The position numbers and the translations under genes are program-made. Below are positions 2,919 to 45,963 of a stretch of DNA of 64,000 bases, piece after piece. Position 1 is the stretch's first letter. The number at the start of each line of letters is the position of its first letter. Under the pieces are notes generated by a model. It was given only the letters and a program-made list of their open reading frames with translations. It did no database searches and was not told where the DNA came from. This DNA is from a bacterium (lineage in GTDB: Bacteria; Patescibacteriota; Gracilibacteria; UBA1369; PNNO01): positions 12,902-76,901 of the forward strand of contig PNNO01000003.1 in the NCBI GenBank assembly GCA_013824265.1. The letters run 5' to 3'.

Positions 2919-4661
2919 ATGGCTGAAGGCGATAACAAAGAAACGGCTCAACAATCTAATCCTGCGAATCAGGGAATAACCTCTCAAACAGGGGGAAATC
3001 CTGCCGGTTTAAAGAAAAAAAGAAGAAGACGCAGGCCAAAGAATAGAAAACCGAACCCTGTTCAGCAGGCGGTTGCAGTGGAGTCGACCCCTACCGCCCA
3101 GGCTGTAGCTACTGCCCAGGTTGTAGAGCAAAAAGATGAATTTTCTTTGGAGCCTCTTGCTAAAGATGAGGCAGTATCTGGTATTTCCGCTATTTCCGAG
3201 CCGGATATTACATTGGAACCGGCAGTAACTGATCCTGTTTTGGTAGAGCCCGAATTAGAGGTTATGCCGGAACCGGAGGTAAAGTTAGAGCCGGAAGTAG
3301 TTTCAGAGACCGAGGTAGTGCCGGAGATTGAAGTAGTTCCGGAACTCGAGGTAGTTACAGAGCCGGATTTGGTTCCTGAACCGGAACAGAAAGATGAATT
3401 CGGATTGGAGTCCGAGCCAGTTTTGGAGACAGAGCCGGAAATTATCCCGGTACAGGAGCCTGAACCTGAAGTAATTCCTGAGCCAGAACCACTTCCAGAA
3501 CCACTTCCAGAACCAGAACCGGTCCAAGAACCGGAATCGGAGGTTGTCCCGGTCGATGCAGGAGCAGCCGCAGGTGCAGCAACAGGAGCAACTGTTGGTT
3601 GGGCGCAACTAAAGGATGCAATCAAAAAAGATCATGTCGAAACTGAAAAGAAAATGAAAGAATCGGCTTTTGGTGACGGGAAAAGTGCACGTAATCAGCC
3701 AGATTTACAGGAAGGAGAAGTTATTATTTCTTCATCATCACAAGCTCAACTTGATGATGACGAGCTTGAAAAGAAAGAAGTTATACAAATTATTACACGT
3801 TACGTTCTTGGGGGATGTGCCGTAATTGCAATTATTTCAGGAATTTTCTTCTTTAAATTGCCACAGATGGCTTTTGAAGGTATAACCGGAATTTTTAAAG
3901 GATCAGATACTCAGGAAGAAGTTAAAAATAATGGAGTGGGAGTAGACACAAGTTCACAGACGGACTTGAACGAAGGGCTCAAGTCTACTTTTATTGCCGG
4001 TGATAATAAAGGAACCTCACGTGATAAATTTGAGGAAGGAGTTGAAACCGCTTTGGTAACCGGAGAAGGAAGTCAGGTTTACGAGGGGGCTCCCGACGCT
4101 ATAAAGACACTTTATTTAACTGGGCTTGAGACCGTTAAGCCTGAATATTTAGACAGAATAGGGTCCTATATGGGTGTTTTGCTAAAACTTCAAAACGCTT
4201 TTGCTACAGATATTCATCAACTGCTTGATGGGTCAACCAGCAGGGAAGAGGCTTTAAATCTACATTTAATTGAACTCCGCGAAGCTTATCAGGAATCTCT
4301 TGATACACAGCGGGTTGTTAATGAAGAAAAGGATAGATTGAAGATTCAATTTAATGAAGCCACCACACAAAAGGATAAACTTGAGAAAGATTTCTTTGCC
4401 GCTCTCGACAAATTGGAGAGCAGTAAATCAAACGATATGCTTAATGCATTTATAGAAGTTTCAAAAAAACAAATCGAGCTAAAAGCTGAGTATAACTCGC
4501 TAAATAAGGTTTCCAAACTTTTTGAGACCGCTCTTTTAAACATGGACGCAAGAATAAAAGATATAGAATTAAATCGGGATGCTTTGATTCAGGGAGTTAA
4601 AGTTGTCGATATAAAAGGGTCGGATCTTAAGTTGATAATTCAGGAGTCCGATTTACTTTAG
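2919..4661 (+). CDS. Bitopic protein of unknown function: polybasic patch, long acidic Pro/Glu repeat tract, one TM, C-terminal coiled-coil region.
   Basis: 580 aa [16 protein letters not shown] near the N-terminus. PE(V/L/I) repeats over about aa 94-213. [22 protein letters not shown]-terminal heptad-like K/E/L-rich sequence ([32 protein letters not shown]...). Confidence 0.7.
3198..3557 (+). repeat. In-frame degenerate tandem repeat (about 15-nt / 5-aa period) encoding the PEPEV-type tract.
   Basis: [48 protein letters not shown] ... [32 protein letters not shown]. Exact duplication gaaccacttcca x2. Two macro-units each begin (E)QKDEF(S/G)LE. The tract is locally GC-rich and creates long antisense shadow ORFs. 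Confidence 0.7.
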
Positions 4662-12122: not shown

Positions 12123-12157
12123 GCTTTTGATTAAACCTATGGTAGGGGACGTAATTA

Positions 12158-12196
12158 TAAATAAAAAGAGCCCTCATATCAATGTATGAGAGCTCT
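12158..12196 (-). terminator. Rho-independent terminator closing the 21.9-12.2 kb three-gene unit.
   Basis: On the minus strand: a 12-bp stem (12167-12178 / 12185-12196, one mismatch), 6-nt loop, then TTTTATTTA. It lies 20 nt after the stop of the 1190 aa gene. Confidence 0.55.
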
Positions 12197-12215
12197 TCCA
12201 TAAATCTTGTTTTTC

Positions 12216-15200
12216 TTAGAACGACTTTTGGCTTACATCAACCAATTTGTTTAGAAGAGGAGGAGTATTCAAATATACTCTGTTGTCGAATCTTATAAGG
12301 ATTGCACCTTCTTCCTTTGTAGGATCGCCGGATTTCACTCTGTATTTTAACAGATGTTGGATATCTCCGTAGATTGATCCATAGTGAGTAAGTCTGCTTT
12401 CGCTGTTGTAATCAACCAAAGATGTATCATCTTTACAGAAGTCTGATGGAGTTACACTTCCTGTCTTTGGAGCTTCACAAATCTGTCCGCCTTTTCCTCC
12501 CTCACCTTCCTGTACAAAGAATACTGCGTTGGTTTCTTCAACACTAGGATCGATAACGATATTTCCTCCTATAACGATAACTGCCAAAGAAGGAACTTTT
12601 CGCGGATCATTTAGATTCTCAGGATCTTTGAAGGTCAAATCATTGTTGATATAAACGTCATTGTTTATAACAACAATTGTTCTTGCTTTATCTGCAAATT
12701 CTCCTCCAAGAGTAAGCATTCCTCCTTTGTCTTTAATATAAACATCATTACTACTGCTTAAGTTGTCCAATGTAGAGCTTCCATTAACAATGGATATATC
12801 GTTCAAATTCTTTGAATATCTTGCGAATAGCTGAACATTTCTTGAAAGACTCTGGACGATGGCTTGCTGTGTAAGTTCTTTAGAAGTTAATTCAAGCTCA
12901 CAAATCAAACTTGATATGCCTTTTATATCAACGCTTCCTTCAGCCGTGCTGTTACATAGGCGGTCATCGTATTTTCTTAATACTGCTACGTCTCCACCTG
13001 TCTTAAAAAGGTTCATGTCATCCGGTGGGATTCCAACGATCACAGGCGTGTCAACGTTTCTTATTTCGGAACAAGAAAGCGTATCTACTCCGTAATCAAA
13101 CGGATTTTCAAAGAAGGTCTCTCCTCCTGATCTTATTATTATAAATGGACATGGAATTATAACTTCCGCATCTGCGCTTCCATTAAAGTTTGCTTCGTCT
13201 TCAAATTCGGCAGTGTTTGGATAAATTTCTCCGCAGACTCCTGTTTCATTTAGAGCACTATCAGGGTCGCTGCAGTTTTCCGGATTAACGCTTGAGTCTT
13301 TTATCTCTCCACGGTATTCAACTAATACTTCATCACGTGAAGGGACATTTTTAATTTCAACTCCATCTTCATCGCCTATGTTTCTTTCGTAACAAACTGC
13401 GTCTTCAAGATCTTCTTCATCTATATCGTCACAGTTCTCAATAGGATCTCCGTCTACAAGAACTCTCATGGAGTCTTCATTGTAATAGATTCTTCCTCCT
13501 TCAGGAGTGTCTGAATCTATTCCCGTCTGAGTGCCCGCAATGTAACCTTGAATGTATCCTTCCGTACCTATTGTATCGGTAATTGTTACATCCTGATCTC
13601 CATCATTGTAGTGAGTGTATGTAATTCTGTAATTAACATAATCGTCGCTAAAGTTTGCGATTGTTCTTGAAGAGTAAGCTAAAGCATCTGCGCTTTTTGC
13701 GTTCTTGTCGAACGAAGGAGGTTCAACGTTTCTTGTAAGTTCATGATTACATTCGTCTTCCCATCCCGGAACCCATACTCTTACTATGTCGGCATCTTCA
13801 ACCATATCTTCGGTTAGAATGAAGCAAATTTCTCCGCTGTCTTCGTAAAGATCAACAGTTTCGGGTGATCCATTGTTTACGGAATATTCAAGTTCGTCGT
13901 TTTCATCGAGCGGCCAATCTGTATAGTCGATACATACTTCTTGGCTTGTTCCTCTTTCAAAAGTGTCGCGATCAAGTTCAAATCGGGTACATTCTTTTTC
14001 TTCACTTGTAAGCTCATCAATACAATCATCACCTTCATACTCGATTACGATTGCCTCTGCAATTAAAGTGTCTCCAGGTTCATAATCAAATGAAGGATAA
14101 TTATCAAAATTCAAACATTCGGAACCTTGTGTATCCTTATCGAATACAATCTCTCCGTCTCTTTCAACCATCCATTTTATGTTGTCGTTGTAAGCTGCCT
14201 CGGCTTCTGCTTCAACATCAACCGTTACGCAGTATTCTTCCTGTTCGGTTAAATCAAAAGTTTCATATCTTGGAAGGAAAGAAAGATCCAAACAAGTCCC
14301 TTCGATTTCTTCCGCTCTTGTACGGAAAACGTCACTACATTTTGATTCCGGAGAGCCAACTACCTTAATTATCATGGTCCCTTCAGAACTCGCAACAACG
14401 CTCATATTATTGTTTGCCGGAGCTGTAGCACATCTTCCATCTGTACTTAGAACATAATTTATTCTGGAATCCGGAAGGAAATCAATATCGTTATTTGTGT
14501 AGCAGTAGCTTATTAAAGGAGTTTCTCCGTTATCCGTATAAGGATCTCCGTTTGTGTCCAAAAGCTCATCAATCCTTATTCTTACGAATTTGTTTAATGG
14601 TACCGGACTTTCTTGTCCGTTAGGATCCCAATTTGGAGTTGTATTAAGAACTTCACAGGTGTTTTCTTCTTCCTGTCCAAGTTTTACATTAAAGGTGTCC
14701 ATACAGCTTGAAATTCCGTTCCCGTTTTGATCAAGTGCCAAAACCCGAACCGTGTTAGTTGGTTTTGATGTGGTTGGTCCTCCATTCATTTTTACTGAAG
14801 TGTCGTTAGTTTTTATGTCTATCCCTTCAGGTGCGTTATTAGCTTTAAAAGTAATTGTCTCCTTTGTAGAAGAAATTCTGTAGCCGTGAATAACACCTGG
14901 GTCGGCATCAGCCGTGAATGATAAATTTTCATTAACAAATCCGTTCTCATCAAGAGTGATAGATGTTTCTGTCGGATCCGTAATTGTTAGCGATCGACAA
15001 ACACCTGGAACGTCTGCAGGTACTGCCTCAAACTCAAGGTACACCAATACATAATGAAGTTCCGAAGAATCTATTCTTCCGCTTGTATTGCCATTATTGC
15101 TTTTTATGTAAATTCCGTTTGTTGTAATACTCTGAAGCTGTCCTTCATTAAACTGCCATGTACCGTCTTCTCTGTCTATATATGCTTCAACCGGAGTTAA

Positions 15201-15788
15201 CGTGAAAGGGACATTTCCGGAAAGACTTACATTTGACCAAACTGTTTTTGGTTTTGTGTTCTCTGCCCATAGAGTATATTGCGGTGTGTATGAAGTTTTT
15301 GGAGTAGAACTGCTCCATCCGGTTAATTTTATTTGAGATCCTGTTGCAGGATATTGATTTGCTGTACCGTTATTGTGAATGTATCCCCAGAACCCGATTC
15401 TTACAGGCTCGTCATTTGTAAAGTTAATTGTGTGACTTGTTCCGTTATCAAAATTGTAATTTGACCAAGATTCCCACGGAGTTGGTAAGGGCAAATCATT
15501 TGAAGATTCTGCAAGTTGAGACTCAATATACATAAATTGCATTTCTTTGTAAGATCTGCCGGTTTTTGTCGCATCTCGATAATTATTAAATGATGCAAAA
15601 TTTAAACCGTATGGGTATTCCTGGTGTGTAATACCTTCGTTATGCCATCTTCGGCAATCTTCGCCATCACAATTATTTGATTCGGAAGACGCATCCCATG
15701 CCGCAAATGAAATCGCGGAAGATAACATGAAAACGAGAGCCATAACCGAGATAATAATCGATTTGTTCGTTTTTGTATTTATTTTCAT
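12216..15788 (-). CDS. Large secreted, very acidic, Cys-rich surface or adhesin-like protein of unknown function.
   Basis: 1190 aa. N-terminal signal-like sequence KSIIISVMALVFMLSSAISFAAW. Many Cys throughout and D/E-rich runs (DDIDEEDLEDAVC). Segment VNYRITYTHYNDGDQDVTITDTIG resembles a DUF11-type repeat. C-terminal VVINNDVYINNDL...AVIVIGGNIVID is beta-helix-like. Confidence 0.8.
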   Translation of the reverse strand: MKINTKTNKSIIISVMALVFMLSSAISFAAWDASSESNNCDGEDCRRWHNEGITHQEYPYGLNFASFNNYRDATKTGRSYKEMQFMYIESQLAESSNDLPLPTPWESWSNYNFDNGTSHTINFTNDEPVRIGFWGYIHNNGTANQYPATGSQIKLTGWSSSTPKTSYTPQYTLWAENTKPKTVWSNVSLSGNVPFTLTPVEAYIDREDGTWQFNEGQLQSITTNGIYIKSNNGNTSGRIDSSELHYVLVYLEFEAVPADVPGVCRSLTITDPTETSITLDENGFVNENLSFTADADPGVIHGYRISSTKETITFKANNAPEGIDIKTNDTSVKMNGGPTTSKPTNTVRVLALDQNGNGISSCMDTFNVKLGQEEENTCEVLNTTPNWDPNGQESPVPLNKFVRIRIDELLDTNGDPYTDNGETPLISYCYTNNDIDFLPDSRINYVLSTDGRCATAPANNNMSVVASSEGTMIIKVVGSPESKCSDVFRTRAEEIEGTCLDLSFLPRYETFDLTEQEEYCVTVDVEAEAEAAYNDNIKWMVERDGEIVFDKDTQGSECLNFDNYPSFDYEPGDTLIAEAIVIEYEGDDCIDELTSEEKECTRFELDRDTFERGTSQEVCIDYTDWPLDENDELEYSVNNGSPETVDLYEDSGEICFILTEDMVEDADIVRVWVPGWEDECNHELTRNVEPPSFDKNAKSADALAYSSRTIANFSDDYVNYRITYTHYNDGDQDVTITDTIGTEGYIQGYIAGTQTGIDSDTPEGGRIYYNEDSMRVLVDGDPIENCDDIDEEDLEDAVCYERNIGDEDGVEIKNVPSRDEVLVEYRGEIKDSSVNPENCSDPDSALNETGVCGEIYPNTAEFEDEANFNGSADAEVIIPCPFIIIRSGGETFFENPFDYGVDTLSCSEIRNVDTPVIVGIPPDDMNLFKTGGDVAVLRKYDDRLCNSTAEGSVDIKGISSLICELELTSKELTQQAIVQSLSRNVQLFARYSKNLNDISIVNGSSTLDNLSSSNDVYIKDKGGMLTLGGEFADKARTIVVINNDVYINNDLTFKDPENLNDPRKVPSLAVIVIGGNIVIDPSVEETNAVFFVQEGEGGKGGQICEAPKTGSVTPSDFCKDDTSLVDYNSESRLTHYGSIYGDIQHLLKYRVKSGDPTKEEGAILIRFDNRVYLNTPPLLNKLVDVSQKSF

Positions 15789-15818
15789 TTTTATTTTGTT
15801 AAGTTTTGAAATTAAATA

Positions 15819-16355
15819 TTATAAAGAATTAAATTCTCCTGTTTCTCCTTGTGACTCTCTGTTTTCCTCTCTGTCAGGAGCCATTCCAACTTCTACGGAT
15901 GTGCTTTCGTATTTTACTTCCATAACACCTTTTGAATTGCTTAATGTTGATAACTCTTCGTCTAGTTCAAAATTAACCTGTCCGGGTTTAACGCTTTCAA
16001 AAGTTAAAGTTGCAATTACTTCATTGTTTGAAGAAAAATATGTATCTCCGAGTTCAAATACGTATTCATTATCAAGTTTACGTAAAGTAACACCTTCTGA
16101 AGTTTCTGTGTTTTTTACTTTTAATACGTCTTCAGAAAACTTAACTCCGATTTCTCCAGATGAAGCATCTTTTTTATTAAGAAGTTTTACTTCCAATATC
16201 GGATTATCAACTGTGAAGTATGCAGGTTGATCGGATTCAACTTTGTAAGTTGCATTTTGTGATTGGAAATAAAACCAACCAGCTGCTAAAACAACTATTG
16301 CAAGTATTGCAATTCCGACAAATGTGTAAGCTGTTTTATTTGATTTCTTGTTCAT
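15819..16355 (-). CDS. N-terminally membrane-anchored beta-rich protein (possibly cohesin/Ig-like fold), unknown function.
   Basis: 178 aa. TM YTFVGIAILAIVVLAAGWFYF, then alternating beta-like sequence (VIATLTFESVKPGQVNFEL). Sits co-directionally between the two giant genes with ~30 nt gaps. Confidence 0.65.
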   Translation of the reverse strand: MNKKSNKTAYTFVGIAILAIVVLAAGWFYFQSQNATYKVESDQPAYFTVDNPILEVKLLNKKDASSGEIGVKFSEDVLKVKNTETSEGVTLRKLDNEYVFELGDTYFSSNNEVIATLTFESVKPGQVNFELDEELSTLSNSKGVMEVKYESTSVEVGMAPDREENRESQGETGEFNSL

Positions 16356-16388
16356 GGGGTATAAATGTTATGAATATTAATTTATAGA

Positions 16389-19300
16389 TTAGATTGAATT
16401 ATCTGGTCCTTCCGAAACCGGTGGTGTAGAATTCTGTGATTCTTGTCCGGTTGTTCCCTGGGTATGCCTGTTGAGAACTTCTCCTTTTATAGGTTTGTGT
16501 CTGTCGGGAACTTCTTCTTTCTTTCTTCTGCCTCTAAATACTCCAAGTGCAAGTGTTATATCTAGATCTGTTTTGGCCCCTTTCGAATTGACCAATATAT
16601 TCGCCTCTTCTTTTGCTGAAGACCAATCTACGTTTTCTTCTTTTCCGGCAATCAATTTTATTCCTATTTTTTGTCTGGTTGCGATTGTTCCGTTTCCGCA
16701 CTTTAGATAAGCTCCCGAATAGACTTCGGTTTCATCAAGGGTGAATTCGTATTTCTTGTTGTATATATAGCTTGGCTTGCCTTCCAATTGAGCGTTTCTT
16801 ATGCCTGTTACAAGCTCTTTAAAGTCCTTGAAAGCTTTTTCGTTTTCAGGCTTTGATAAAGTCAATTCCAATGCTTCTCCGCCTCTTTTCAAGGCAGCAT
16901 AAATTTCCGTCATGCCTTTATAGTTTTCTTTTCCAAGTATTTCTATAAGCGGTGAAATCATTTTGCCATCATATTTAACGAACATTGAGATTAGAAGCAA
17001 TGACAGTTCAGATTCAAGGAACTTTTTCTTTCCTTCAATTGAATCAAGATTTTTTGTTTCAAGAGGGGACATTGTCTCAAATATAATTCTCGCAGCCGCT
17101 CTTTCAACCGGACTGGCTGAATCCAATCTTAGTCTTTTTGGTCCTACCATTTTGAATATATCTTTGAAATCTTCTGGGACTTCCGTTCCGTAGGATGCTG
17201 CCAAAGTATCTTTACCATTCTTTTTAGTGTAAGACGCAAATTTCAAACCTCTGCCAACCGCCACCCCGTTTTCTGGTTTTGAAAACTCGTCAAGTTGTTC
17301 CTTGTTTTGCGGCATTGTTAACATCAAATAATTGGCAATTGAATCCGGCGTTGCGGATGGATATGTTTTTACAATTTCAGCCCATTGTGCCGGATTGTTT
17401 TTTGCGTAATCGCTTATGTAATTTTTTATGTATGCTCTGAATAATTCATTTCTTCTTTCCAGCCTTTGATTTATTACGTTCTTGTTCTTGTCTCTTAACT
17501 CTATGAAAACCTCATTAAGCATGTAGTTGTAAATAAGGTTTAATTCTTGGTCATTCAAAGAAGGATCTATTGTTTTTAGATTTCTGAATACTTCAACCTT
17601 TAGCGCCGCTTCTTTTGCAGGAGTGTTTGCCTCCGCTATCTTTCTTTCAAACGATTCGTTCTTACTTAGATAGCTTTTGCTTGTTTGCTTAACCAAATCG
17701 GACCTTATAGGAGCCGCCTCTTTCGGTTTTAAGGTTTCCCACATTTTGCTTGTAAGATCAGTTGACTCATTAAGGTTGTATTCGAATTTTTTATCCTTGA
17801 AGTTTTCAAAAGTGTTACCCCTCGTGTTGTATTCTTCAATTGTAAGGGTGTTTGATTCAGCCTCCGAAAGTCCGGTTCTTGCTTCTCCTTTTACAACCAT
17901 ATATCTGCTTCCCATCGGTTTATATATGATTTGAGCTGAATCTTCTCTTATTTGTTCGTCTGTTCTGTCAGGATTATTCTTGAAAGTTATTACTTCAAGA
18001 TTCATTGCTCCTTTTTCGGCAAAAGGGTACCTATATTCAGATCTTGTAAAGAAAAGTTTCTTTGCTTCGCTTGCTGCAAGCAAAATCCTGTTGTTTTTAT
18101 GATCGAGAATTATGCCTTTCTTTTGCATTTCCGGATCCATAAGCACTTGGACATTGCTTCCGTCTGTGTTTAACGGAGTTATCGCAAGTAAAGTGTTGTT
18201 TGAATTTGAAGGGTCTGGCACTATTTCAACATGCATATCCATCTTGTTGAATTTGCTTTTTACGGCTTCAAAAGTTCCTTTTATGTTGCCTTCTTGTCTT
18301 TTTACCAATTCTCCGATTCCTGCAACTTCAACGTTTGCGCCTCCTCTTTCACTGTCGAAAAATAAATTTCCGCTTTGAGCTGTCATTGTGTATCCCGATA
18401 CAAAAGGTTCTGTGCCGGTTGCTTTTCTAAGTTTTCTTCTTAAAGATTCTTGCGCAATTTCCGTTTGCCAATATCCTGAATACTTTGGATGTTCGCTTCT
18501 TACAACAAATATTACTTCCGTACCCGGAATTTTTATTGTCACGTAAGGACCTATTCCTATACCTGCTTTGCTTATACCAATTCCAACTCCCGCTCCTTGA
18601 ACAAAAGGAATTTTTACTCCTTCCTTTGCTTTTTCAGCCCATTGATTCTTTGCAGCCTGATACATTTCAATTAACACGGAATTTGGAAATGTAGGATAAG
18701 TGTTCTTTATGAACTTCATGTAATCTCCAAACGTAGGGTTTTCCAAAATAAATTTTACGGCTTCATCGTAATTTCCGTTTTTAAGACTTTCTTCTATTTG
18801 CCCTAAGCCCTTTGAGCTTAATTCTTTGTTTTTCGCTTGTTTTTCAGCTCTTAATTGATCCCATTTAACACCTATTGATGCTCCAATACCAAAGTTTTCA
18901 AAATCGGTTACGCTTACTCCTGCTCCCGCGTTTGCAACCCAATCCCAGTTTCCTGCGAACTTATGTTCCATTGTTAAGGCTGCACCTGCAAAATCAGGGC
19001 TTGCTCCAATATTGTATTTTAATTTAAATCCTCCGAGTTTACCTATGTCTCCGCTTACTCCTGCAAATGCAGTTAGTGGTATTTTTTCACCGTTTTTAAC
19101 TCCGGCAAGTCCAAAATGGAGATACATTTTTTTACCTTTGAAGTTTCCTATAAGAACAGAAGCTCCCAACCCTCCTGCTGCAATTTTCATGCCTGGCGGA
19201 GTTTCTCCGTTTGCAAGCGCAAACAGCGTAATTGCTATCTTCTTTTCAAGATCTGCAAGTTTTTCCTCGGGTAAACCGTTTTTTAAAGCTTCTTCCTGTA

Positions 19301-21932
19301 TGCTCCTGTAAGGCTCTTGAGTTGCAAGTCCGGTTGCTTCCAGTTTCTCAGCCTGCAATCCCATTGTTTCAATATTTCTTGTTTCAACATATCCCATCTG
19401 GATCATACTTATATATGCCTTTGAAAGTTTTGATGTATCCAGATTTTTAAGTTCTATTTTCTTGAATATTATTTCAAGGTTCTCAAGTTTGTTTTTATTT
19501 AGTGGTCTTTTTAACTCGCTTTTAACGCTTAAGATATTGAAATCTTTTAAAATTTTATCCGTAACGCTTTCAACTGCTTTTTCAGATTCAGATTTAACAT
19601 TCAACTTGAATGCATAATTTAAACCTTGATAAAGATAAGTGTTTGCAAGTGTTAAAACTTTGGCTTCTTTTGGTTCATATATTCCTGTTTCTCCGTGTCT
19701 TTCTGAAGTCTTTTTAATCATATCAAGGTATCCTCTGTCTGAGGCCAGATATTTTTCGAATTCCTTAGGATTTAGCGTTGAGGACTCTTTAAGGTATGCC
19801 ATTGTTACCTTCTTTTCTTTTTCATTAAAGAGACTTCTCCACCAGTTGAGATTTTGTGAGACTTTTGACCCTTTTGGATTGAATATTTTTAATATAAAGT
19901 TTCTTGAGCGAACTCCTTCACTTACAGCTGCTCTTACCGTTTCCCATTTATTGTAGTTTTCTTTTGATTTATCTCTTAATTTAGCTTTGTTTTTTGCTAA
20001 AACTTTAAAGGCTTCTTCCCAGCCGTCTTGAGGTACTTTTACCAATACGTATTTATTTTCATTCACTCTCTTTACACAACCTCTTTTTATTAACTCGTCC
20101 AAACCAAAGGTCATAAACAAAAGTTTTAGTCCTCCGTCTTCTTTTACAAGATCTGGAACATTTAATCCTTTTATTTCGTATCCGTTTTTAAGAGCCAACG
20201 CCTGTATTTCGTTAATATTTTTATTTGTTACTCCAACATAAAAATTTCTCGGAGCATTTTCCTTTGAATGCAACAAGGCCCCTAAACTCTGATCGCCATA
20301 AGCCGAATAAGAAATTGTCTCTGTCATACCTGCTTTTTCGGCTTCCGGAGTTTCCTTGGTTAATACAGTTTGTCTTTCCAATCCTAAAAATTTTGTCCTG
20401 TATTTGTCTGAATTTGTTTCCGGTTTCTTTTCCAATAACTTTAGATTTTTAAGTGCTTCAAAAACTTTTGCAATTCCAATTGCCAACTGTTCAAGGCTGG
20501 CTTCGTTTTGGCCATTCTTTTTATAATCTTCTTTGAATTTTTCGTATCCTCCTTTATATAGGGGTTGTCCGTTCACCGGTATTTTGAAAAAGTCTTCGGC
20601 ATTTAAATTTTTATTACTCCATTCTTGTATTGAATTCTGTACATATACTCTTCTTTCTTCTGTTGTTTTTAGATTAAACGGAGCTCTTGTAAGAACTTCT
20701 TCGAGCCCTTGATCTATTCTGTCCCAGTTTGCTTCAAAATCACTGTCTTCTCTAAGTATTCCCGGAACTTTAAAATCTTGGTTTTTAAATACATAATTTT
20801 TGTTTTTTTCCAAAACAGTTAGTTCATTTTCTCTTATTTTTTGCTCTCTTATTGCTTCCAACTTTTTGGTTTCTTCTTGAGATACAGTTTGTGCTTTAGC
20901 TTTTTCCTCTTGCGGAAGCTGTTCTCTTTCTTTTGGCTTATAAGCTTCGTAAGTAATCTGGCTTATTTTTGTGCCATGGAAGATAAGTGCTCTTTGAGTT
21001 GTTCCTTCTCTTATAAAAGTCTTCTGTGAAGGATGGTAGTACGCCCAGTATTTGTGAGGTACTCCGGATTGGCTCTTCCCGTCTAAGTAAACTCTTATAT
21101 ACATGTTCCCGCCTTTAAGTCTGCTTAAATCAAGCAGGTCCTGTATTTGCACGTCATGCTCAGCTTTTCTGTCGACTTTTCCTTTTTGGTCGATAAAATT
21201 CACTTTGTAAACTCCGTTTTCATCAGTTTCTTTTAAATATTGGTCTCCTTTTTCGGAAATAAGTTGATTTACAAAATTTCCTGAATCAAGATGCTTTTCT
21301 ATTTCTTTACTGAATTCTTGTTTTTTTTCGTTCGCTTTTTCCGTCTCTTTTGCTTTTGCTTCTTCTAACTCTTTCTTTTTTGCTTCGACTTCTTTTAATC
21401 TTGGTGCTTCTGTTAACATGTTAAATTCAAGGAAACTTTGTTTATTTCCCTTTGCGTAAAATGACAACGAGCTGTTTGGTCCAAGCTGTATTGTTACAGG
21501 GATATTATTGTTTATAACCTCTGAATTTTTTTCTATTAACTCAGCTATATCAAGCGCAAGTTCTTTGCCAAAGTTTCCGGCATTTGCTCCAAAAACAGAC
21601 CCTGCAGAATTCCTCAACGGGTGTTTTTCTCTCAAGGAATTAAAAATTCTTGTTCCGGCACTAACTAAATTGTGTTTTTCAAATTTATCCGTGAATTCAA
21701 CTCTAACTTTTGTTTCTGGGCCTATAATTTTGGCATAATTCTCTTTGTATTTTTCAATTTCATTTTTTTCAGGTTGTTTCTGTTTTTGTTTTTCCGCGGG
21801 TTTCTCCGCAGCCGAAGCCGTGGTTTCACTCGGTTTTTCATTCATAAAAACAAGCCTGGATTCGCATATAAACAATTTTTTGAAAAACATATTTTTGTGT
21901 TTAGTTTTATTTTTATCCATGTATTTTATCAA
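16389..21932 (-). CDS. Giant lysine-rich protein of unknown function (up to 1847 aa) with no signal peptide or classical TM helix.
   Basis: Uninterrupted 5.5 kb ORF. The track start is a TTG at 21932; in-frame ATGs lie at 21920, 21890 and 21845. I recognise no family motif. Internal Gly/aromatic-rich segments at about aa 914-1025 and 1107-1145. Confidence 0.85.
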   Translation of the reverse strand: MIKYMDKNKTKHKNMFFKKLFICESRLVFMNEKPSETTASAAEKPAEKQKQKQPEKNEIEKYKENYAKIIGPETKVRVEFTDKFEKHNLVSAGTRIFNSLREKHPLRNSAGSVFGANAGNFGKELALDIAELIEKNSEVINNNIPVTIQLGPNSSLSFYAKGNKQSFLEFNMLTEAPRLKEVEAKKKELEEAKAKETEKANEKKQEFSKEIEKHLDSGNFVNQLISEKGDQYLKETDENGVYKVNFIDQKGKVDRKAEHDVQIQDLLDLSRLKGGNMYIRVYLDGKSQSGVPHKYWAYYHPSQKTFIREGTTQRALIFHGTKISQITYEAYKPKEREQLPQEEKAKAQTVSQEETKKLEAIREQKIRENELTVLEKNKNYVFKNQDFKVPGILREDSDFEANWDRIDQGLEEVLTRAPFNLKTTEERRVYVQNSIQEWSNKNLNAEDFFKIPVNGQPLYKGGYEKFKEDYKKNGQNEASLEQLAIGIAKVFEALKNLKLLEKKPETNSDKYRTKFLGLERQTVLTKETPEAEKAGMTETISYSAYGDQSLGALLHSKENAPRNFYVGVTNKNINEIQALALKNGYEIKGLNVPDLVKEDGGLKLLFMTFGLDELIKRGCVKRVNENKYVLVKVPQDGWEEAFKVLAKNKAKLRDKSKENYNKWETVRAAVSEGVRSRNFILKIFNPKGSKVSQNLNWWRSLFNEKEKKVTMAYLKESSTLNPKEFEKYLASDRGYLDMIKKTSERHGETGIYEPKEAKVLTLANTYLYQGLNYAFKLNVKSESEKAVESVTDKILKDFNILSVKSELKRPLNKNKLENLEIIFKKIELKNLDTSKLSKAYISMIQMGYVETRNIETMGLQAEKLEATGLATQEPYRSIQEEALKNGLPEEKLADLEKKIAITLFALANGETPPGMKIAAGGLGASVLIGNFKGKKMYLHFGLAGVKNGEKIPLTAFAGVSGDIGKLGGFKLKYNIGASPDFAGAALTMEHKFAGNWDWVANAGAGVSVTDFENFGIGASIGVKWDQLRAEKQAKNKELSSKGLGQIEESLKNGNYDEAVKFILENPTFGDYMKFIKNTYPTFPNSVLIEMYQAAKNQWAEKAKEGVKIPFVQGAGVGIGISKAGIGIGPYVTIKIPGTEVIFVVRSEHPKYSGYWQTEIAQESLRRKLRKATGTEPFVSGYTMTAQSGNLFFDSERGGANVEVAGIGELVKRQEGNIKGTFEAVKSKFNKMDMHVEIVPDPSNSNNTLLAITPLNTDGSNVQVLMDPEMQKKGIILDHKNNRILLAASEAKKLFFTRSEYRYPFAEKGAMNLEVITFKNNPDRTDEQIREDSAQIIYKPMGSRYMVVKGEARTGLSEAESNTLTIEEYNTRGNTFENFKDKKFEYNLNESTDLTSKMWETLKPKEAAPIRSDLVKQTSKSYLSKNESFERKIAEANTPAKEAALKVEVFRNLKTIDPSLNDQELNLIYNYMLNEVFIELRDKNKNVINQRLERRNELFRAYIKNYISDYAKNNPAQWAEIVKTYPSATPDSIANYLMLTMPQNKEQLDEFSKPENGVAVGRGLKFASYTKKNGKDTLAASYGTEVPEDFKDIFKMVGPKRLRLDSASPVERAAARIIFETMSPLETKNLDSIEGKKKFLESELSLLLISMFVKYDGKMISPLIEILGKENYKGMTEIYAALKRGGEALELTLSKPENEKAFKDFKELVTGIRNAQLEGKPSYIYNKKYEFTLDETEVYSGAYLKCGNGTIATRQKIGIKLIAGKEENVDWSSAKEEANILVNSKGAKTDLDITLALGVFRGRRKKEEVPDRHKPIKGEVLNRHTQGTTGQESQNSTPPVSEGPDNSI

Positions 21933-21951
21933 AAAATGGTTCCAAAGTCAA
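21923..21951 (-). promoter_or_regulatory. Sigma-70-like promoter TTGACT-17-TAAAAT for the giant-gene unit.
   Basis: Read on the minus strand: -35 at 21951-21946, -10 at 21928-21923, 17-nt spacer. It lies inside the 5' end of the track ORF. If real, translation starts at 21890 or 21845. Confidence 0.4.
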
Positions 21952-35159: not shown

Positions 35160-36554
35160 TTAAAAATTGAATACGATTATAAAAGATGTAAGTGCGAAAA
35201 TCGGAAATAAAATTAAGCTTGCCATTGAATTCTTTTTGAAAAAATTTATTTTTATGCTTGTTGTTATGTGTAAAAGAAAAACCAGAGGCAGAATGTATTT
35301 AACTATGCCCGTGTTAAAAAGAAAGAATAATGTCGGGATGTCTGAATTTGTGAAAATAAGATTCTTGTTCAATATCAACTCTGAAATAAAGTAATAGGTT
35401 AAATAGTAAAATAAAAGCCATCCACTGAGGCCATTAGTTATTGAAACTATTTTTTCAAATGTGCTTAGTTCGTCTTCAGCTTTTAATCGGTTATTTTCAT
35501 TGCGTTTAAGAATTGCAATTTTTTCTTTTAATTTCTTCTTTTGAATATGCAATTGCTTGATACTTTTGTTGGCAGATTGTCTATATTCCTGATCTTTTGA
35601 TTTTATAACTACTGAAAAATATTGTTTTAAGTCTTTATTTAATTCGCTTATTTTTTTTCTTAATATTCTTATCTCTTTATCTTCAGAAATAAATTTTAAG
35701 ACAATTGAATAGAAGAAATTTTTTATTTTGTCAGAGACCAATACCTTTGCTCTATCTCTTATATGCTCCGATTGCCACCTCTCGATTTGATCCTGAAGGT
35801 CTTCATATAGCCCAAAATCCTTTCCTCTCTGAATTGCTTCTATCATTTCCTGAGTATCCGTATAAAGTCCCAGTTTGTCGTCTATACCTTCTTTTTTTGA
35901 AATGAAAATCTCAGCTCTTTGCAAATATTTAAGAAGATCTTTGCAGGTATTTTTTAAATATTCCAGATTGGTTGTGTTTTTTAAACGAAGAATTTTATTA
36001 ACGTAATCTTTTATTTTTTGCTTATCTTGAGGATTTAGATCGCTCGCAAATTTATCTATTATTTCCGATACTTTTTTTAAAACGAAATCAACCTGGCGCA
36101 TTACAAGTGCCTTTTCTTTATCGAAACTTCTATCTATCTTTTTTAATTTTTCATTATGGAACATTTCGGTATTTTTCCTAACCTCTTTTTGATATTGCCT
36201 CATAAGGTCAATAATCCCAGCTGTTTTTTGTTTTTCCTTGTCTTCCTTGCTTAAACTATTTTCAACAACATATCTTACATCAAGATCATATTCGGTAATT
36301 AGTCTCTTAAATGCACTATATCTGTCTTCCGAAACTATTGTTCCAATTATGTTCCTTTTTTCTTTGTCTATCCCGCTGAATTCAAACTTTAATCCCGCTT
36401 CGTCGGTAACTATCTGTTCACTTTCTTCTATTGAAATTACCGAAAAACCCAGTTCTTTAAGGTCGTTTTGGGCAATATCCAGAGTTGGAGCGTCAACAAC
36501 GCCGGATAACTGTCGGTTTTCTTTGTTTACAACAATGTACCTAAATTTTGGCAT
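35160..36554 (-). CDS. Membrane protein of unknown function: duplicated GspF/PilC-N-terminus-like module, long coiled coil, C-terminal TM bundle.
   Basis: 464 aa. MPKFRYIVVNKENRQLSGVVDAPTLDIAQNDLKELGFSVISIEE and KFEFSGIDKEKRNIIGTIVSEDRYSAFKRLITEYDLDVRYVVE. K/E/L-rich middle. Three or more hydrophobic segments at the C-terminus. Confidence 0.6.
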   Translation of the reverse strand: MPKFRYIVVNKENRQLSGVVDAPTLDIAQNDLKELGFSVISIEESEQIVTDEAGLKFEFSGIDKEKRNIIGTIVSEDRYSAFKRLITEYDLDVRYVVENSLSKEDKEKQKTAGIIDLMRQYQKEVRKNTEMFHNEKLKKIDRSFDKEKALVMRQVDFVLKKVSEIIDKFASDLNPQDKQKIKDYVNKILRLKNTTNLEYLKNTCKDLLKYLQRAEIFISKKEGIDDKLGLYTDTQEMIEAIQRGKDFGLYEDLQDQIERWQSEHIRDRAKVLVSDKIKNFFYSIVLKFISEDKEIRILRKKISELNKDLKQYFSVVIKSKDQEYRQSANKSIKQLHIQKKKLKEKIAILKRNENNRLKAEDELSTFEKIVSITNGLSGWLLFYYLTYYFISELILNKNLIFTNSDIPTLFFLFNTGIVKYILPLVFLLHITTSIKINFFKKNSMASLILFPIFALTSFIIVFNF

Positions 36555-41198: not shown

Positions 41199-41297
41199 AT
41201 TATTGTTTGATAGGCCACCATTGTAGCTATCTAATCGTCATTTGTGAAGAAGAGGCTGATGTGATATAAAATATAGTTGTCTCCTAACTCCAATTTT

Positions 41298-42818
41298 ATG
41301 AAAACACCAACTACCAGGGCTCTAAAGATTTTTGCTTTATTTGCCCTGCTTGGGTCTGTTGTAGTATTTGCACTTGTTTTTGCCAAGCCGGAAATAATTT
41401 CAAAGAAATTGGATGATGTTATAAAGCATGACAAAGTTCTAAGTAGCGAAAAACCCGAAAATTTTATTGCTTTAATGGCGGCGGATACTGAGTCTGGACT
41501 AGTTAATGAATCCTATGTAACCGTTTACAATCAAAATCTTGCTCTTGTTAAGGAGGGGAGAGAGCTTGATCTTGCTCAAGGGTATAATCAGGTTAAATAT
41601 CAAGATGTTCCAAGTCAGATAAATCCTTCTTCGGTTATTTTTAGTGATACAAAATATGAGGATACGGAGGTAATTGAGCAAACTTATGAGTTTGATTTGG
41701 TTTCTCAGCAAAAATTATTGGAGAAATATATAGATGAAGAGATAAAAGTTTTTTCAAATGTTGAAGATGGAGTAAAAGAATATAGAGGAAAACTATTGAG
41801 CTATCTTGATGGAATAATGCTTGAGACCGGTGGAGGCATTGTTAGTATTAAAGATATCCAGAGTATTGAATTTTCAAAGTTACCTGAAGGTTTGATAACA
41901 AAACCTACGCTTGTATGGAGTGTATTTGCTTCACAGGCGGGAAAGAGAAATGTTTTAACGACATATCTGACCGGAGGACTTACATGGCAGGCAGATTACA
42001 TAGCTTATGTTAACGCAGACGACACTTTGGTTGATTTGAAAGGTTGGACGACAATAAATAATACGTCGGGAGCTTCATATCCAAACGCGACTTTAAAACT
42101 GGTTGCCGGAGATGTGAATATAATTCAACCTGTGGTTCAAAAATCATATTATGAAGATTATGCCATGCCTGCGATGGTGGCTGAAAGTACTGCGGGTGGA
42201 TATTCCGAGGAGTCATTTTTCGAATATCATTTGTACACTTTGGGTAGAAAAACAAATTTAAAAGATAACGAACAAAAGCAAATTTCACTTCTTAACGCCA
42301 AGGATATTTCTGTTAAGAAAGAATTTGTTTATGACAGCAATAAGGCGTGGGATAAAATTAGAGTTATGCTTGGAACTAAAAATAGTGAGGATAAGGGGCT
42401 TGGTATTCCTTTGCCAAAAGGTGTTGTGAGAGTTTACAAGCAGGATTCGGAAGGGCATTTGCAATTTATAGGAGAGGATCAAATTGACCATACTCCAAAG
42501 GATGAAGAAATAGAGGTTTTCTTGGGGAATGCTTTTGATATCTCTGTTGAAAAAACTACGCAGGAATCAAGTCGTTCGGGTGGTTTGTTGAATATTGGAG
42601 GGAGATGTGAGTATCAGGATATTGAAATAAATATTCGTAACCACAAGCAAGAGGCAATTGAAGTTAAAGTGATGGAAAATTATTGGGGTCCATCGGTAGA
42701 AATTTTGGATTCAAATTATAAATTCGAAAAAGAAGATGAATATACATATACCTTTAGAGTGCCGGTTGAAGCTGATGGAGAAAATACTCTTAAGTATACA
42801 GTTAAGCAGTGTTGGTAG
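41298..42818 (+). CDS. Secreted or anchored DUF4139/DUF4140-like protein.
   Basis: The track ORF starts at TTG 41277; ATG 41298 gives MKTPTTRALKIFALFALLGSVVVFALVFA. VTVYNQNLALVKEGRELDLAQGYNQVKYQDVPSQINPSSV resembles the DUF4140 N-terminal pattern. Confidence 0.5.
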   Translation: MKTPTTRALKIFALFALLGSVVVFALVFAKPEIISKKLDDVIKHDKVLSSEKPENFIALMAADTESGLVNESYVTVYNQNLALVKEGRELDLAQGYNQVKYQDVPSQINPSSVIFSDTKYEDTEVIEQTYEFDLVSQQKLLEKYIDEEIKVFSNVEDGVKEYRGKLLSYLDGIMLETGGGIVSIKDIQSIEFSKLPEGLITKPTLVWSVFASQAGKRNVLTTYLTGGLTWQADYIAYVNADDTLVDLKGWTTINNTSGASYPNATLKLVAGDVNIIQPVVQKSYYEDYAMPAMVAESTAGGYSEESFFEYHLYTLGRKTNLKDNEQKQISLLNAKDISVKKEFVYDSNKAWDKIRVMLGTKNSEDKGLGIPLPKGVVRVYKQDSEGHLQFIGEDQIDHTPKDEEIEVFLGNAFDISVEKTTQESSRSGGLLNIGGRCEYQDIEINIRNHKQEAIEVKVMENYWGPSVEILDSNYKFEKEDEYTYTFRVPVEADGENTLKYTVKQCW

Positions 42819-45800
42819 GACTGTAAACTTCTTTCTCTCCGGAAACATCATCATTTGCGCACATCATAGAGTAGAGGATTGGGTCTAGTAATAGGACTAA
42901 GAAGAACTGAGTTGTTAGTCCAAATATAAACGCAAATCCAAGACTTCCCCATATCTCGTCAGTCAGAGCTAATGGAAGAATTCCCATGATTGATGTTATT
43001 GTTGTTAGAAATACAGGTTGCAGGCGTGATGTGGTCCCTTCAATTATTGCGGTTCTGAATTCTACGCCTCTTCTTCTGTTATGATTCATTTGGTCAATAA
43101 GTACGATTGCATCGTTTACCACAACTCCAGCAAGGCCAACGATACCAATTACGGATGGAATTGATAAAGAAATATTCATTGCAGCCAGACCAAAGAAAAC
43201 ACCTGTTAACGCAAATGGCAAAGACAGAAGAATAATAAATGGTTGTTTGTAAGATTTAAATTGCAAAACAAGAAGCATTGCAATTAATACGATGCCGACC
43301 AATAGAGAAGTGCCGAGATCTTTAAACGACTGAGTTATTTCTTCAAGTTCGCCACCATAACTCATCTCATATCCTTGTGGGAGTGGATTTTCTTTAATTT
43401 TTAAAAGCAAGTCGTCAATTATTTCAGTTGAAGTTCTGTCTTTTACATAACTTGAAATATAAACGGCTCTTTCTGTATCAATATGACTTATGCTTGTTAG
43501 ATTTTGCGAAAAATTAATATCAACAAGGTTGCTTATAGGTACTGCTCCGGAAACAGGAGAAGTAATAAATATATTTTCCAGGTCATCCAAAGTAAGCTGA
43601 TTCTCTTCTCCTTTTTTAAGATCATATTTTACTATAACGCTTATATCTTCACCGTTTTTTCTTATTTCCGTAGCCTTTATCCCTTCAAGAGCCCCCCTTA
43701 AAACAGATCCAACCTGGCCTGCCGAAAGTCCATAAAAACTAAGCTTGCTTCTATCAACGGAAATTAAAAATTCTCCCGCGCCTTGTTCTATTGAAGTATC
43801 TACATCGAGTGTTCCTTCAATATTTTGAAGCATTACTTTTATTTCTTCCGATAATTGTTCAAGTTTATCAAGCTCCGGCCCTGTTAATTCTATAAATATT
43901 GGGGCTCCGCTTGGCGGACCACCCTGTAGGTCAGTTACCATTATTGTTGCTCCCTGAATGTTCTTTAATTTTTCGCGAATTTCATCAGCGATTTTATAAC
44001 TTTTCTTGTCACGGTCTTTTGGGTCAACCAGATTTGCCGTAATGTTCGATATATTTTCTATACTTTTTCTTGTCGAAGTAAAAAGCGAACTTCTAAGTGC
44101 TCCACCTGCGTTTGTGCCAATATTTGTCGTAAAATCTTTAACCTCCGGAATATTTATAAGAACCTCCTCAACTTTGGATGTGATTCTTTCCGTTTCCGAA
44201 AGCATTGTTCCTGCCGGAGTTTCAATGTCGATAAAGAAATAATCAAAATCACTTATTGGGAATGATTCTGTCTTTAATACGCCTGTTATGGGAAGCGAAA
44301 AACTTACCGCCATAACCGCGCACATTATTGTAAGCGTAAATATTTTTTTTGTGCGTGAATTAAGGATGTTTGTTATAAATTCTCTGTACCATTTTTGTAT
44401 TGGGCCGAATAAATTTCTCTGATCGCCCGGTTTTAAATATTTCGCAACCAGAGTTGGTGTTATTGAAAGATTTACGAAAAGAGAAGCAAGCAAAAGAACG
44501 CTTACGGTGATAGGGATTACGCTCATGTAGTCACCCATAACACCACTTACTGTAAGCATCGGAAGAAATGCAAATATTGTTGTAAGTGTTCCTGTTATTA
44601 TCGGCCATTTCAATTCGTGAATACCTAAAATTGTTGCGCCGTATGGAGTATACTTCCCGTCTCTTAAATTTTCATAAATTCCTTCTATGATTATTACCGC
44701 ATTATCAATTAAAAGTCCCAACGCAAAAACAAGGGAAAACAGCGCTATGCCATTTATGGAGTCTCCTCTTACATAAAGTACGCCGAATGTTATTAGCATT
44801 GCGAGGGGTATACTTATTCCTGCAATAATTGCTTCTTTCCATCCAAGGAAAATAAACAGAAGAATCATAATAAGTACGATTGTGCTTATTCCGTTATTTC
44901 CCATTACTCTAAAATCATCCTGTATGAAAAGCGAGTTATCATTACTTATATGTACCTGTACATTGGACGGTATTATAGTGCCTTTAATTTCTTCGACTTT
45001 TTCTTTTGCGCTCTCAGCTACTTTTACAATGTTCCCACCTTTTTTCTTGTAAACCTGTAGCGAAATGGAATTTTTTATTTCTTCATTATTTTTCATCCCT
45101 ATTCTTGCAATTGTAGTTTTGTCTTCAAGTTTTTCTTCTATAGTTGCTACGTCTTTTAATAAAATTGAGTTATTTATGCCTTCTGTCCCAAAAAATTGTT
45201 TAACCGGTATTTGCGCTAACTGATCAGCACTTTCAACTTGAGCGTCTATTCTAATACCATAAATATATCCATCATTTTTAATCTCTCCGATAGGAAAATT
45301 TGTGTCGGAAATTTTTATTGCGCCAACTACGTCATTTATAGTTAATCCGTAACTCTCCAAAAGTTCCTGTTTGAGACTTACAATGATTTGTCTTTGTTGT
45401 GCTCCAATTATAAGTACTTCGGAAACTCCGCTAACTTTTTTAATTTCATCTTTAACCTCTTCCGCTATTTCCTTGAACTCAGCCTCAGGAAGTTCACTGA
45501 GTAACGAGAAAGTAATTACTGATTGCTGATTTGAATCGTATGACGATACTTGTGGATCTTCCGCGTCGTCAGGCAAGCCTGCCGTGTCAACTGCAGAGTT
45601 AAGATCGCTTATGGCCTTGTCTATATCTGTTCCGGAATCAAATTGGATTGTAACCATCGAAACTCCGGCCTGTGAGGTAGAGCTTATTGTATCTATATTA
45701 TCAACGCTTTTTATAGCCGACTCCACTTTGTCAGTAACAAGAAGTTCTATGTCAGAAGGGCTTGCTCCCGGATAAATGGTTACTACCGAAGCGTATGGCA

Positions 45801-45963
45801 AATCAACTTCAGGTTGTAACTCCCTTGGAAGTCCAAATAAAGAAGTAACTCCCCATATCAATATTATGATAATTGTTAAAGAAGTTAACCTTGGGTGATT
45901 TACGAAAAAGTTCCATGGAGACGCTTTTATCTCCTTTATCTCTTCTTTACTGTAATTTGTCAT
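42802..45963 (-). CDS. RND-family efflux transporter (AcrB/AcrD/AcrF type), 12 TM.
   Basis: 1053 aa. N-terminal FFVNHPRLTSLTIIIILIWG...LPRELQPEVDLPYASVVTIYPGASPSDIE. Duplicated 6-TM halves with two large loops. Confidence 0.9.
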   Translation of the reverse strand: MTNYSKEEIKEIKASPWNFFVNHPRLTSLTIIIILIWGVTSLFGLPRELQPEVDLPYASVVTIYPGASPSDIELLVTDKVESAIKSVDNIDTISSTSQAGVSMVTIQFDSGTDIDKAISDLNSAVDTAGLPDDAEDPQVSSYDSNQQSVITFSLLSELPEAEFKEIAEEVKDEIKKVSGVSEVLIIGAQQRQIIVSLKQELLESYGLTINDVVGAIKISDTNFPIGEIKNDGYIYGIRIDAQVESADQLAQIPVKQFFGTEGINNSILLKDVATIEEKLEDKTTIARIGMKNNEEIKNSISLQVYKKKGGNIVKVAESAKEKVEEIKGTIIPSNVQVHISNDNSLFIQDDFRVMGNNGISTIVLIMILLFIFLGWKEAIIAGISIPLAMLITFGVLYVRGDSINGIALFSLVFALGLLIDNAVIIIEGIYENLRDGKYTPYGATILGIHELKWPIITGTLTTIFAFLPMLTVSGVMGDYMSVIPITVSVLLLASLFVNLSITPTLVAKYLKPGDQRNLFGPIQKWYREFITNILNSRTKKIFTLTIMCAVMAVSFSLPITGVLKTESFPISDFDYFFIDIETPAGTMLSETERITSKVEEVLINIPEVKDFTTNIGTNAGGALRSSLFTSTRKSIENISNITANLVDPKDRDKKSYKIADEIREKLKNIQGATIMVTDLQGGPPSGAPIFIELTGPELDKLEQLSEEIKVMLQNIEGTLDVDTSIEQGAGEFLISVDRSKLSFYGLSAGQVGSVLRGALEGIKATEIRKNGEDISVIVKYDLKKGEENQLTLDDLENIFITSPVSGAVPISNLVDINFSQNLTSISHIDTERAVYISSYVKDRTSTEIIDDLLLKIKENPLPQGYEMSYGGELEEITQSFKDLGTSLLVGIVLIAMLLVLQFKSYKQPFIILLSLPFALTGVFFGLAAMNISLSIPSVIGIVGLAGVVVNDAIVLIDQMNHNRRRGVEFRTAIIEGTTSRLQPVFLTTITSIMGILPLALTDEIWGSLGFAFIFGLTTQFFLVLLLDPILYSMMCANDDVSGEKEVYSPTNTA

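Follow-up and report, generated by a model that had tools for sequence, protein, structure and literature searches.

A conserved three-gene locus for a candidate envelope-spanning surface complex in Peregrinibacteria

Giant surface proteins have been described in two bacteria of the candidate phyla radiation (CPR). Candidatus Peribacter riflensis has large exported Cys-rich proteins (~7% Cys on average) encoded in a cluster of 14 genes, and they were proposed from their sequences to be attachment factors (PMC4736985). The giant proteins of Vampirococcus lugosii are predicted to be membrane-localized, contain known domains (WD40, PKD and others) and were also proposed from sequence to be attachment factors (PMC8080830). 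From this literature, large unannotated surface proteins in CPR genomes are already a known kind. Here we analyzed 64,000 nucleotides of contig PNNO01000003.1 (GCA_013824265.1, positions 12,902 to 76,901 of the forward strand), referred to as the window. The source organism is a CPR bacterium (Peregrinibacteria), and because of this affiliation an episymbiotic lifestyle is plausible. The window contains a locus of three genes (hereafter the trio), of which gene 1 encodes a giant protein without a signal peptide, gene 2 a small membrane protein and gene 3 a large secreted protein. How CPR/Patescibacteria build their envelopes and attach to partners is largely unknown beyond a few cultured Saccharibacteria, and the candidates are mostly unannotated giants. 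The trio is a delimited and universally conserved target in Peregrinibacteria, consisting of a predicted β-sandwich stalk with its base, a small anchor and a signal-less giant.

The giants of Peribacter and Vampirococcus come from the same broad CPR group, and gene 3 fits their description as large proteins with a signal peptide or membrane localization. A difference is that gene 3 contains 2.2% Cys, well below the Peribacter average, and the Peribacter genes are clustered in much larger number. Another is that the trio has no known domain in Pfam, in contrast to the Vampirococcus giants. The signal-less giant partner, an N-terminal motif in that giant and the fixed locus between tpiA and holA are in neither PMC4736985 nor PMC8080830. 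Beyond these two papers, we found no description of this family in the literature, nor of its fixed position, its giant partner without a signal peptide, or the N-terminal motif and Gly-rich β core of gene 1.

We propose, with roughly even confidence, that the trio encodes a lineage-specific, envelope-spanning surface complex of three parts for attachment or envelope architecture. Gene 3 would be exported by Sec as an elongated, disulfide-stabilized chain of β-sandwich domains whose count varies among genomes, and its C-terminal domain of ~400 aa would be the cell-proximal attachment module. Gene 2, a bitopic protein with a small, possibly cohesin-like ectodomain, would serve as the membrane tether of gene 3. 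Gene 1 would be a large intracellular scaffold at the cytoplasmic face of the membrane, attached to it or embedded in it by a Gly-rich amphipathic β segment and a hydrophobic hairpin. The analysis itself established the gene layout, the ends of the transcription unit, the synteny throughout the relatives, the absence of known homologues, the export signals, the fold class of gene 3 and the co-variation of gene 2 with gene 3. We infer from these features the physical assembly of the three proteins, the membrane insertion of gene 1 and a biological role in surface architecture or attachment to another cell. The attachment (terminal) organelle of Mycoplasma, a wall-reduced, host-dependent small bacterium, combines the surface adhesins P1/P40/P90 with the large signal-less cytoskeletal proteins HMW1-3. 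The trio would follow the same logic, a secreted adhesin with a giant signal-less scaffold, as an analogy without sequence or structural homology. Host attachment would be plausible by comparison with the proposals made for related CPR bacteria (PMC4736985, PMC8080830).

The trio, or a pair of the giant and the large protein, was found in the same slot in all ~20 Peregrinibacteria/Peribacteria loci examined, down to ~22% identity. In loci L001–L022 the order was kept: tpiA divergent, then the giant, the small and the large gene, with holA downstream wherever the contig reached it. The P0023 contig showed the same arrangement, known from its gene table alone. The shared slot included gene 1 relatives with profile E-values of 1e-13 to 3e-4, and across the syntenic loci relatives at E 1e-4 to 1e-40 were included. 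In L020 the trio order was intact although the wider synteny was altered. A small gene was missing from the gene calls between giant and large protein in three cases (the P0023 contig, L018 and L021). The giant was broken into two open reading frames (ORFs) of 1254 and 733 aa in L019, and its N-terminus was in a separate 129-aa ORF in L006. The trio was flanked by housekeeping genes (holA, gatA, tpiA, hpf, truB and genes for a Wzy_C protein, a Mur ligase and a MraY-like transferase), and the rest of the window was that of a typical small CPR chromosome. Ca. Peribacter riflensis was also checked for the slot. Its tpiA neighborhood differed and the trio was not there; therefore, the trio-bearing clade is another branch of the phylum.

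When 5.8 billion proteins were searched with a word index, gene 1 had 6 relatives and gene 3 had 13. For the gene 1 core, 52 proteins were returned from 1.84 billion representatives in an exhaustive profile search with HMMER. The lengths in the gene 1 family ranged from 1250 to 3229 aa, leaving aside short entries that matched part of the profile. Named homologues were from Candidatus Peregrinibacteria/Peribacteria and from metagenome-assembled and single-amplified genomes of the 'Patescibacteria group'. By these searches, the trio is limited to one CPR lineage and lacks annotation. Its proteins are not true ORFans, as an original prediction made from the window's sequence had called them, since each has relatives within that lineage. 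The same prediction had named a lack of co-occurrence in related genomes as the result that would speak against it; the trio or the pair was found together in every related genome located. The unit was called self-contained. This does not hold in the sense of a mobile or accessory element, as the trio is a vertically inherited core operon at a fixed locus. No connection with the prepilin peptidase, located 34 kb from the trio, was supported.

The three ORFs were confirmed on the minus strand, co-directional and separated by AT-rich gaps of 33 nt (gene 1/gene 2) and 30 nt (gene 2/gene 3), close to the ~30 nt first described. Inspection of both gaps indicated no terminator. The bracketing promoter (TTGACT-17-TAAAAT) and the stem-loop/T-run terminator were both found and were both conserved in relatives. 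Promoter-like matches across the region numbered 21, against 26.3 expected in shuffles, hence they were not enriched. At least nine relatives (L002, L004, L005, L009, L010, L013, L014, L018 and L019) had a TTGACT...TG(n)TAAA(A/C)T element ahead of the giant gene, followed by an A-rich leader of ~35–45 nt. A hairpin with a T-run was present downstream of gene 3 in 11 of 13 loci, and the stem sequences differed among loci. Because the promoter element and the terminator hairpin recur in relatives, both ends of the transcription unit are genuine. The -10 box ends 3 nt ahead of ATG 21920. The gene 1 homologue of L004, the closest one, begins with MFFKKLF, the same as the product of ATG 21890. For these two reasons, ATG 21890 (MFFKKLF..., 1833 aa) is most likely the true start of gene 1.

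The three proteins were searched against Pfam, NCBIfam, PHROGs, PADLOC and PDB sequences, with single sequences and with profiles, and nothing significant was found. Pfam and NCBIfam scans of the trio proteins were negative at E<=1, and the 12 distant relatives scanned with Pfam, ten for gene 1 and two for gene 3, were blank. A motif scan of the operon proteins for Walker A, HExxH, CxxC, GDSL, LPxTG and RGD was also negative. The absence of a recognizable catalytic or family motif, noted at the outset, extended to all three proteins, none of which had a confident database match. Neither gene 1 nor gene 3 contained a dockerin or any other Pfam domain.

Several known systems were considered and rejected. 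Two-partner secretion (TpsA/TpsB) had no Pfam/NCBIfam match in the trio, and the giant is without a signal peptide. For a type IV pilus tip adhesin (PilY1/PilC), PF05567 was not in gene 3, and the neighbors are tpiA and holA, with the prepilin peptidase far off. For a sortase-anchored adhesin, gene 3 had no LPxT[GAN], and its C-terminus is a conserved globular domain. Tc/ABC toxin domains (VRP1, SpvB and RHS) were negative in Pfam for the trio and for 10 distant gene 1 relatives. A phage-derived or anti-phage module was negative in PHROGs and PADLOC, and in all relatives the locus has a fixed place with housekeeping genes on either side. Matches to phage tail families (TIM-barrel_NCTSP, HK97-gp10 and the tube initiator 9ndy) were attributed to chance, as all had E>0.003 and were inconsistent among homologues. 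By eye, the 3229-aa relative from the P0023 contig seemed to contain SH3b-like repeats, for which Pfam gave no support.

Gene 3 carries a signal peptide and is strongly acidic (pI 4.2), and its 26 Cys residues are arranged in 13 sequential pairs. Its 3D structure was modeled using AlphaFold from a 14-sequence alignment (mean predicted local distance difference test score, pLDDT, 62). The model contained confident β-sandwich domains at residues ~90–830 and a moderately confident β region at residues 990–1110. Foldseek against PDB matched tandem Ig-like arrays with E-values of 1e-10 to 1e-6, at 7–13% identity and TM-scores of ~0.1. The matches included complement/macroglobulin MG domains, cadherins, fibronectin, a large adhesin stalk and the Sap S-layer assembly domain. 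For a modeled structure, this result points to a fold class and not to a family. As with known tandem β-sandwich surface proteins (the adhesin stalk PDB 6xi3, Bacillus anthracis Sap 6hhu, macroglobulin and cadherin ectodomains), gene 3 is an Ig-like chain, extracellular and acidic, with a variable number of modules. It differs from them in having no family-level match, and its C-terminal domain of ~400 aa matches nothing. The early description of gene 3 as secreted, acidic, Cys-studded and adhesin-like in fold was in line with these data.

The C-terminal domain was the best conserved part of gene 3 in distant loci (domain E 1e-58 to 1e-96). The middle Cys modules matched repeatedly in these loci, and their number varied among proteins of 1113–2055 aa. 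In the close clade, the N-terminal and C-terminal domains were both conserved and the number of middle modules was variable. We read gene 3 as a conserved base with a stalk of variable length. Pfam/NCBIfam and motif scans of gene 3 detected no LPxT[GAN], SLH, RTX, type I secretion system (T1SS) or other anchoring signal. L021 is the most distant locus; there, the large protein following the giant (L021:6178-9519) had a weak Pfam match to SpaA_2, a pilin/adhesin Ig-fold, which is consistent with the β-sandwich nature of gene 3 relatives. A separate observation was made in L002, where a diversity-generating retroelement lies ~4 kb downstream of the trio (L002:23478-25718). It consists of an RVT_1 fragment, bAvd and a template repeat/variable repeat (TR/VR)-like direct repeat of 107 nt (24798-24904 vs 25235-25341, 83% identity). 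The retroelement was rejected as a diversifier of gene 3; its VR is instead at the 3' end of a DUF4256 gene.

Gene 2 is membrane-anchored, as originally stated. It has a Lys-rich N-terminal tail, one transmembrane (TM) segment at residues ~12–31 and an acidic ectodomain of ~140 aa (pI 4.5), and it carries a conserved GW.Y motif. Homologues were found at the same position in 12 or more loci. In Pfam, one of seven members matched Cohesin (PF00963) with E=0.0021, below the gathering score, and the gene 2 protein of the window had no match. Further sub-threshold matches among the members were to Arrestin_C, pAdhesive_8 and aRib. Judged by these matches, a β-sandwich ectodomain is plausible but unproven.

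Distances were compared across 10 genomes, and the housekeeping distance was regressed out before partial correlations were calculated. The mean p-distances of gene 1, gene 2 and gene 3 were 0.68, 0.66 and 0.53, respectively, whereas those of tpiA, holA and hpf were 0.26–0.31. The trio thus diverges 1.8–2.3 times faster than these neighbors. Faster divergence is typical of envelope proteins. The closest pairs were 47–72% identical, and synonymous sites were saturated. The distances of gene 2 and gene 3 co-varied (partial r=0.64), and 1 of 2000 permutations was as high.

A housekeeping envelope structure is an alternative for the same proteins. Here, gene 3 would form the layer or stalk of a surface (S)-layer-like lattice or spacer with gene 2 as its anchor, and the operon would be required for the architecture of the cell's own wall and would not be a host device. 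This is possible, though on the unlikely side. The locus is fixed in every genome of the lineage and near the Wzy_C, Mur ligase and MraY-like genes, and in the close clade the distal N-terminal domain of gene 3 is conserved together with the C-terminal one while the middle modules vary, both of which suit a wall component. The B. anthracis Sap S-layer assembly domain was among the Foldseek matches of gene 3 (rank 26), but this likeness is generic to any tandem β-sandwich array, and Pfam showed no SLH or known S-layer anchoring domain. The abundance of the proteins does not follow from the ordinary strength of the promoter or from the presence of three giant genes, and gene 1 is left unexplained by such a structure.

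Gene 1 is Lys-rich (11.7–11.8% Lys, pI 9.0) with 3 Cys residues, and it has no signal peptide, TM helix or any 19-aa hydrophobic stretch, in agreement with its first description. No hydrophobic N-terminal segment was present in gene 1 or any homologue, and the ORF cannot extend upstream of 21932. Tat and prepilin signals were considered for gene 1 and gene 2 and rejected, because the R motif was not followed by an h-region and G/FxxxE was absent. The Lys content, pI and Cys content of gene 1 were like those of the cytoplasmic proteins of the window. All 7 window proteins with a signal peptide or an anchor plus a large ectodomain had pI 4.2–5.0. The cytoplasm-like composition of gene 1 argues against its export.

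The N-terminus of gene 1 carries a motif of the E-x-R-L-V-F type at residues ~10–35, followed by an A/P/E/K-rich low-complexity stretch. Of 47 gene 1 family members, 18 matched a strict regular expression for the motif in their first 70 aa, whereas the expectation for 70 aa in other parts of these proteins was 0.002. Looser variants were present in most of the remaining members. The motif was kept even where the following several hundred residues were unalignable. It differs from Sec, Tat and prepilin signals. Short ORFs just upstream of the giant in two relatives (L018:9290-9967 and L006:1725-2114) bear their own copy of it. The one in L006 is probably the frameshifted N-terminus of the giant, and the one in L018 is a separate 225-aa protein, besides the giant's own motif.

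Further conserved parts were located downstream in gene 1. A small β domain was modeled with pLDDT 76–83 over most of its stretch and had no significant structural match in Foldseek. The central segment is a Gly/Ala-rich, low-charge, amphipathic β segment with aromatic residues at the strand ends, and nowhere else in the protein is the period-2 hydrophobic moment as high. AlphaFold gave it eight antiparallel strands in a meander, with pLDDT ~40. A Gly-rich segment of ~110 aa was present in every gene 1 family member, with a median of 21% Gly and 12.7% charged residues, compared with 29% charged overall. Its top Foldseek matches by probability were outer-membrane protein (OMP) barrels, none significant (E>=0.18 in PDB and >=0.013 in BFVD). 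The Pfam family OMP_b-brl (PF13505) matched the segment in one of seven homologues, with E=0.04 and 14.5 bits against a cut-off of 28.7. The model makes the segment similar to OmpA/OmpX-like barrels in its eight antiparallel amphipathic strands, its Gly/Ala/Ser/Thr-rich composition and its aromatic ends. Differences are that gene 1 has no signal peptide and that the segment is amid an 1833-aa protein. No gene of the outer-membrane machinery, such as BamA or TolC, was found among the window ORFs scanned. We treat the likeness to OMP barrels, drawn from a model, as a lead and not a finding. The second hydrophobic hairpin was conserved superfamily-wide and was hydrophobic enough in distant relatives to pass the TM threshold; going by its sequence, it would be compatible with a membrane anchor of the monotopic or re-entrant type. 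A β/α domain (pLDDT ~60–69) was matched by nearly all distant relatives.

Several results weigh against the proposed complex. Co-variation was weak between gene 1 and gene 3 (r=0.29; 95 of 2000 permutations), and gene 1 gave no signal with gene 2 (r=0.11). The test is weaker for gene 1, whose distances approach saturation. The basic pI of gene 1 was not conserved, as its distant relatives had pI 5–8. The AlphaFold model of gene 1 was poor (mean pLDDT 54, ~40 in the Gly-rich segment), and Foldseek of this model against PDB and BFVD gave no match with E<0.01. The C-terminal domain of gene 3 was also ill-modeled, with residues 833–984 and 1120–1190 poor. Finally, the trio does not adjoin pilus or secretion genes.

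These results bear on a further alternative, that gene 1 functions apart from the exported gene 2/gene 3 pair and has no more than a transcript in common with it. It would then be a cytoplasmic protein, for example a cytoskeletal scaffold or one associated with the nucleoid. The cytoplasm-like composition of gene 1, its weak or absent co-variation with the other two genes and the many helical segments and E/K-rich linkers in its model would all fit. We nevertheless regard it as quite doubtful, because gene order and operon boundaries were invariant over very deep divergence, even with altered surroundings in L020, and a conserved low-charge Gly-rich segment together with a hydrophobic hairpin would be odd for a soluble scaffold.

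Very improbable, finally, is the 'pore-delivering module' of the original prediction, in which gene 1 would leave the cell independently of Sec through its N-terminal motif and its Gly-rich segment would insert as a β-barrel or pore in the cell's own or a host membrane: the persistence of the motif in N-termini that otherwise cannot be aligned, the eight-strand amphipathic meander with aromatic strand ends and the OMP-barrel matches favor it, but every such similarity is sub-significant and modeled at low pLDDT, soluble β sheets also have amphipathic strands, gene 1 has neither the acidic composition of the exported proteins nor the disulfide-forming Cys residues of gene 3, and the operon has no dedicated secretion ATPase or channel.

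The proposed three-part complex has a bolder version. Gene 1 would represent a new class of giant membrane protein, with a β barrel or hairpin in the cytoplasmic membrane, or a Sec-independent export substrate marked by the E-x-R-L-V-F motif. Together with gene 2 and gene 3, it would form an undescribed trans-envelope attachment or feeding organelle, universal in one lineage of Peregrinibacteria. We consider this version improbable. If gene 1 does insert β structure in the cytoplasmic membrane or use a new export route, this would be a new principle of membrane biology. If it does neither, the operon would still be a marker of the lineage's cell surface and an entry point to it.

Table 1. Positions in the window of the trio, its transcription signals and its protein domains
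Feature	Position	Strand	Description
Gene 1	16389..21890	minus	1833 aa from ATG 21890; ORF reaches TTG 21932 (16389..21932, 1847 aa)
Gene 2	15819..16355	minus	178 aa, bitopic
Gene 3	12216..15788	minus	1190 aa, predicted Sec-exported, acidic
Operon promoter	21923..21951	minus	-35 TTGACT, 17-nt spacer with TG extension, -10 TAAAAT; 10/12 match
Intrinsic terminator	12164..12199	minus	15-bp stem, 6-nt loop, T-run
holA promoter	12182..12154		TTGATA-17-TATAAT; overlaps the trio terminator
Gene 1 N-terminal motif	21831..21890	minus	MFFKKLFICESRLVFMNEKP; family consensus roughly [FL]x[EK][KN]R[LF][VI]F (E-x-R-L-V-F type)
Gene 1 small β domain	20931..21248	minus	Residues ~225-330 (from ATG 21920); HKYWAYYHPSQ..EGTT.RA..HGTKI; invariant columns in alignment A2
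Gene 1 central Gly/Ala-rich low-charge amphipathic β segment	18861..19238	minus	Residues ~895-1020
Gene 1 second hydrophobic hairpin	18501..18614	minus	IPFVQGAGVGIGISKAGIGIGPYVTIKIPGTEVIFVV; residues ~1103-1140; pattern IP.V.G.G.GV....PY.T.KIPG
Gene 1 β/α domain	17886..18248	minus	Residues ~1225-1345; densest invariant columns in A2 (T1248-K1334)
Gene 2 TM segment	16263..16322	minus	
Gene 3 signal peptide	15702..15788	minus	
Gene 3 conserved N-terminal β domain	~15009..15641	minus	
Gene 3 Cys-bearing Ig-like modules	~13299..15008	minus	
Gene 3 highly conserved C-terminal domain	~12219..13298	minus	~400 aa

Other features of the window were also recorded. A 580-aa ORF with pI 4.4 at 2919..4661 (plus strand) had no Pfam domain at E<=1e-3, and a 464-aa ORF with pI 9.2 at 35160..36554 (minus strand) had none at E<=1e-4. 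A single ORF of 1069 aa at 49070..52279 (minus strand) combined SecD, a PpiC-type rotamase and SecF, an unusual fusion of translocon-accessory and chaperone parts. The region 41277..47893 encoded an AcrB-type resistance-nodulation-division (RND) pump (1053 aa), a 648-aa HlyD-like membrane-fusion protein and a divergent DUF4139 protein, with no outer-membrane channel gene near this pump locus; the CPR organism is presumably a monoderm. Proteins of the window predicted to be extracytoplasmic were uniformly very acidic (pI 4.2–5.0), and the cytoplasmic ones were Lys-rich (8–14.6% Lys). This acidity of the extracytoplasmic proteins suggests a saline habitat.

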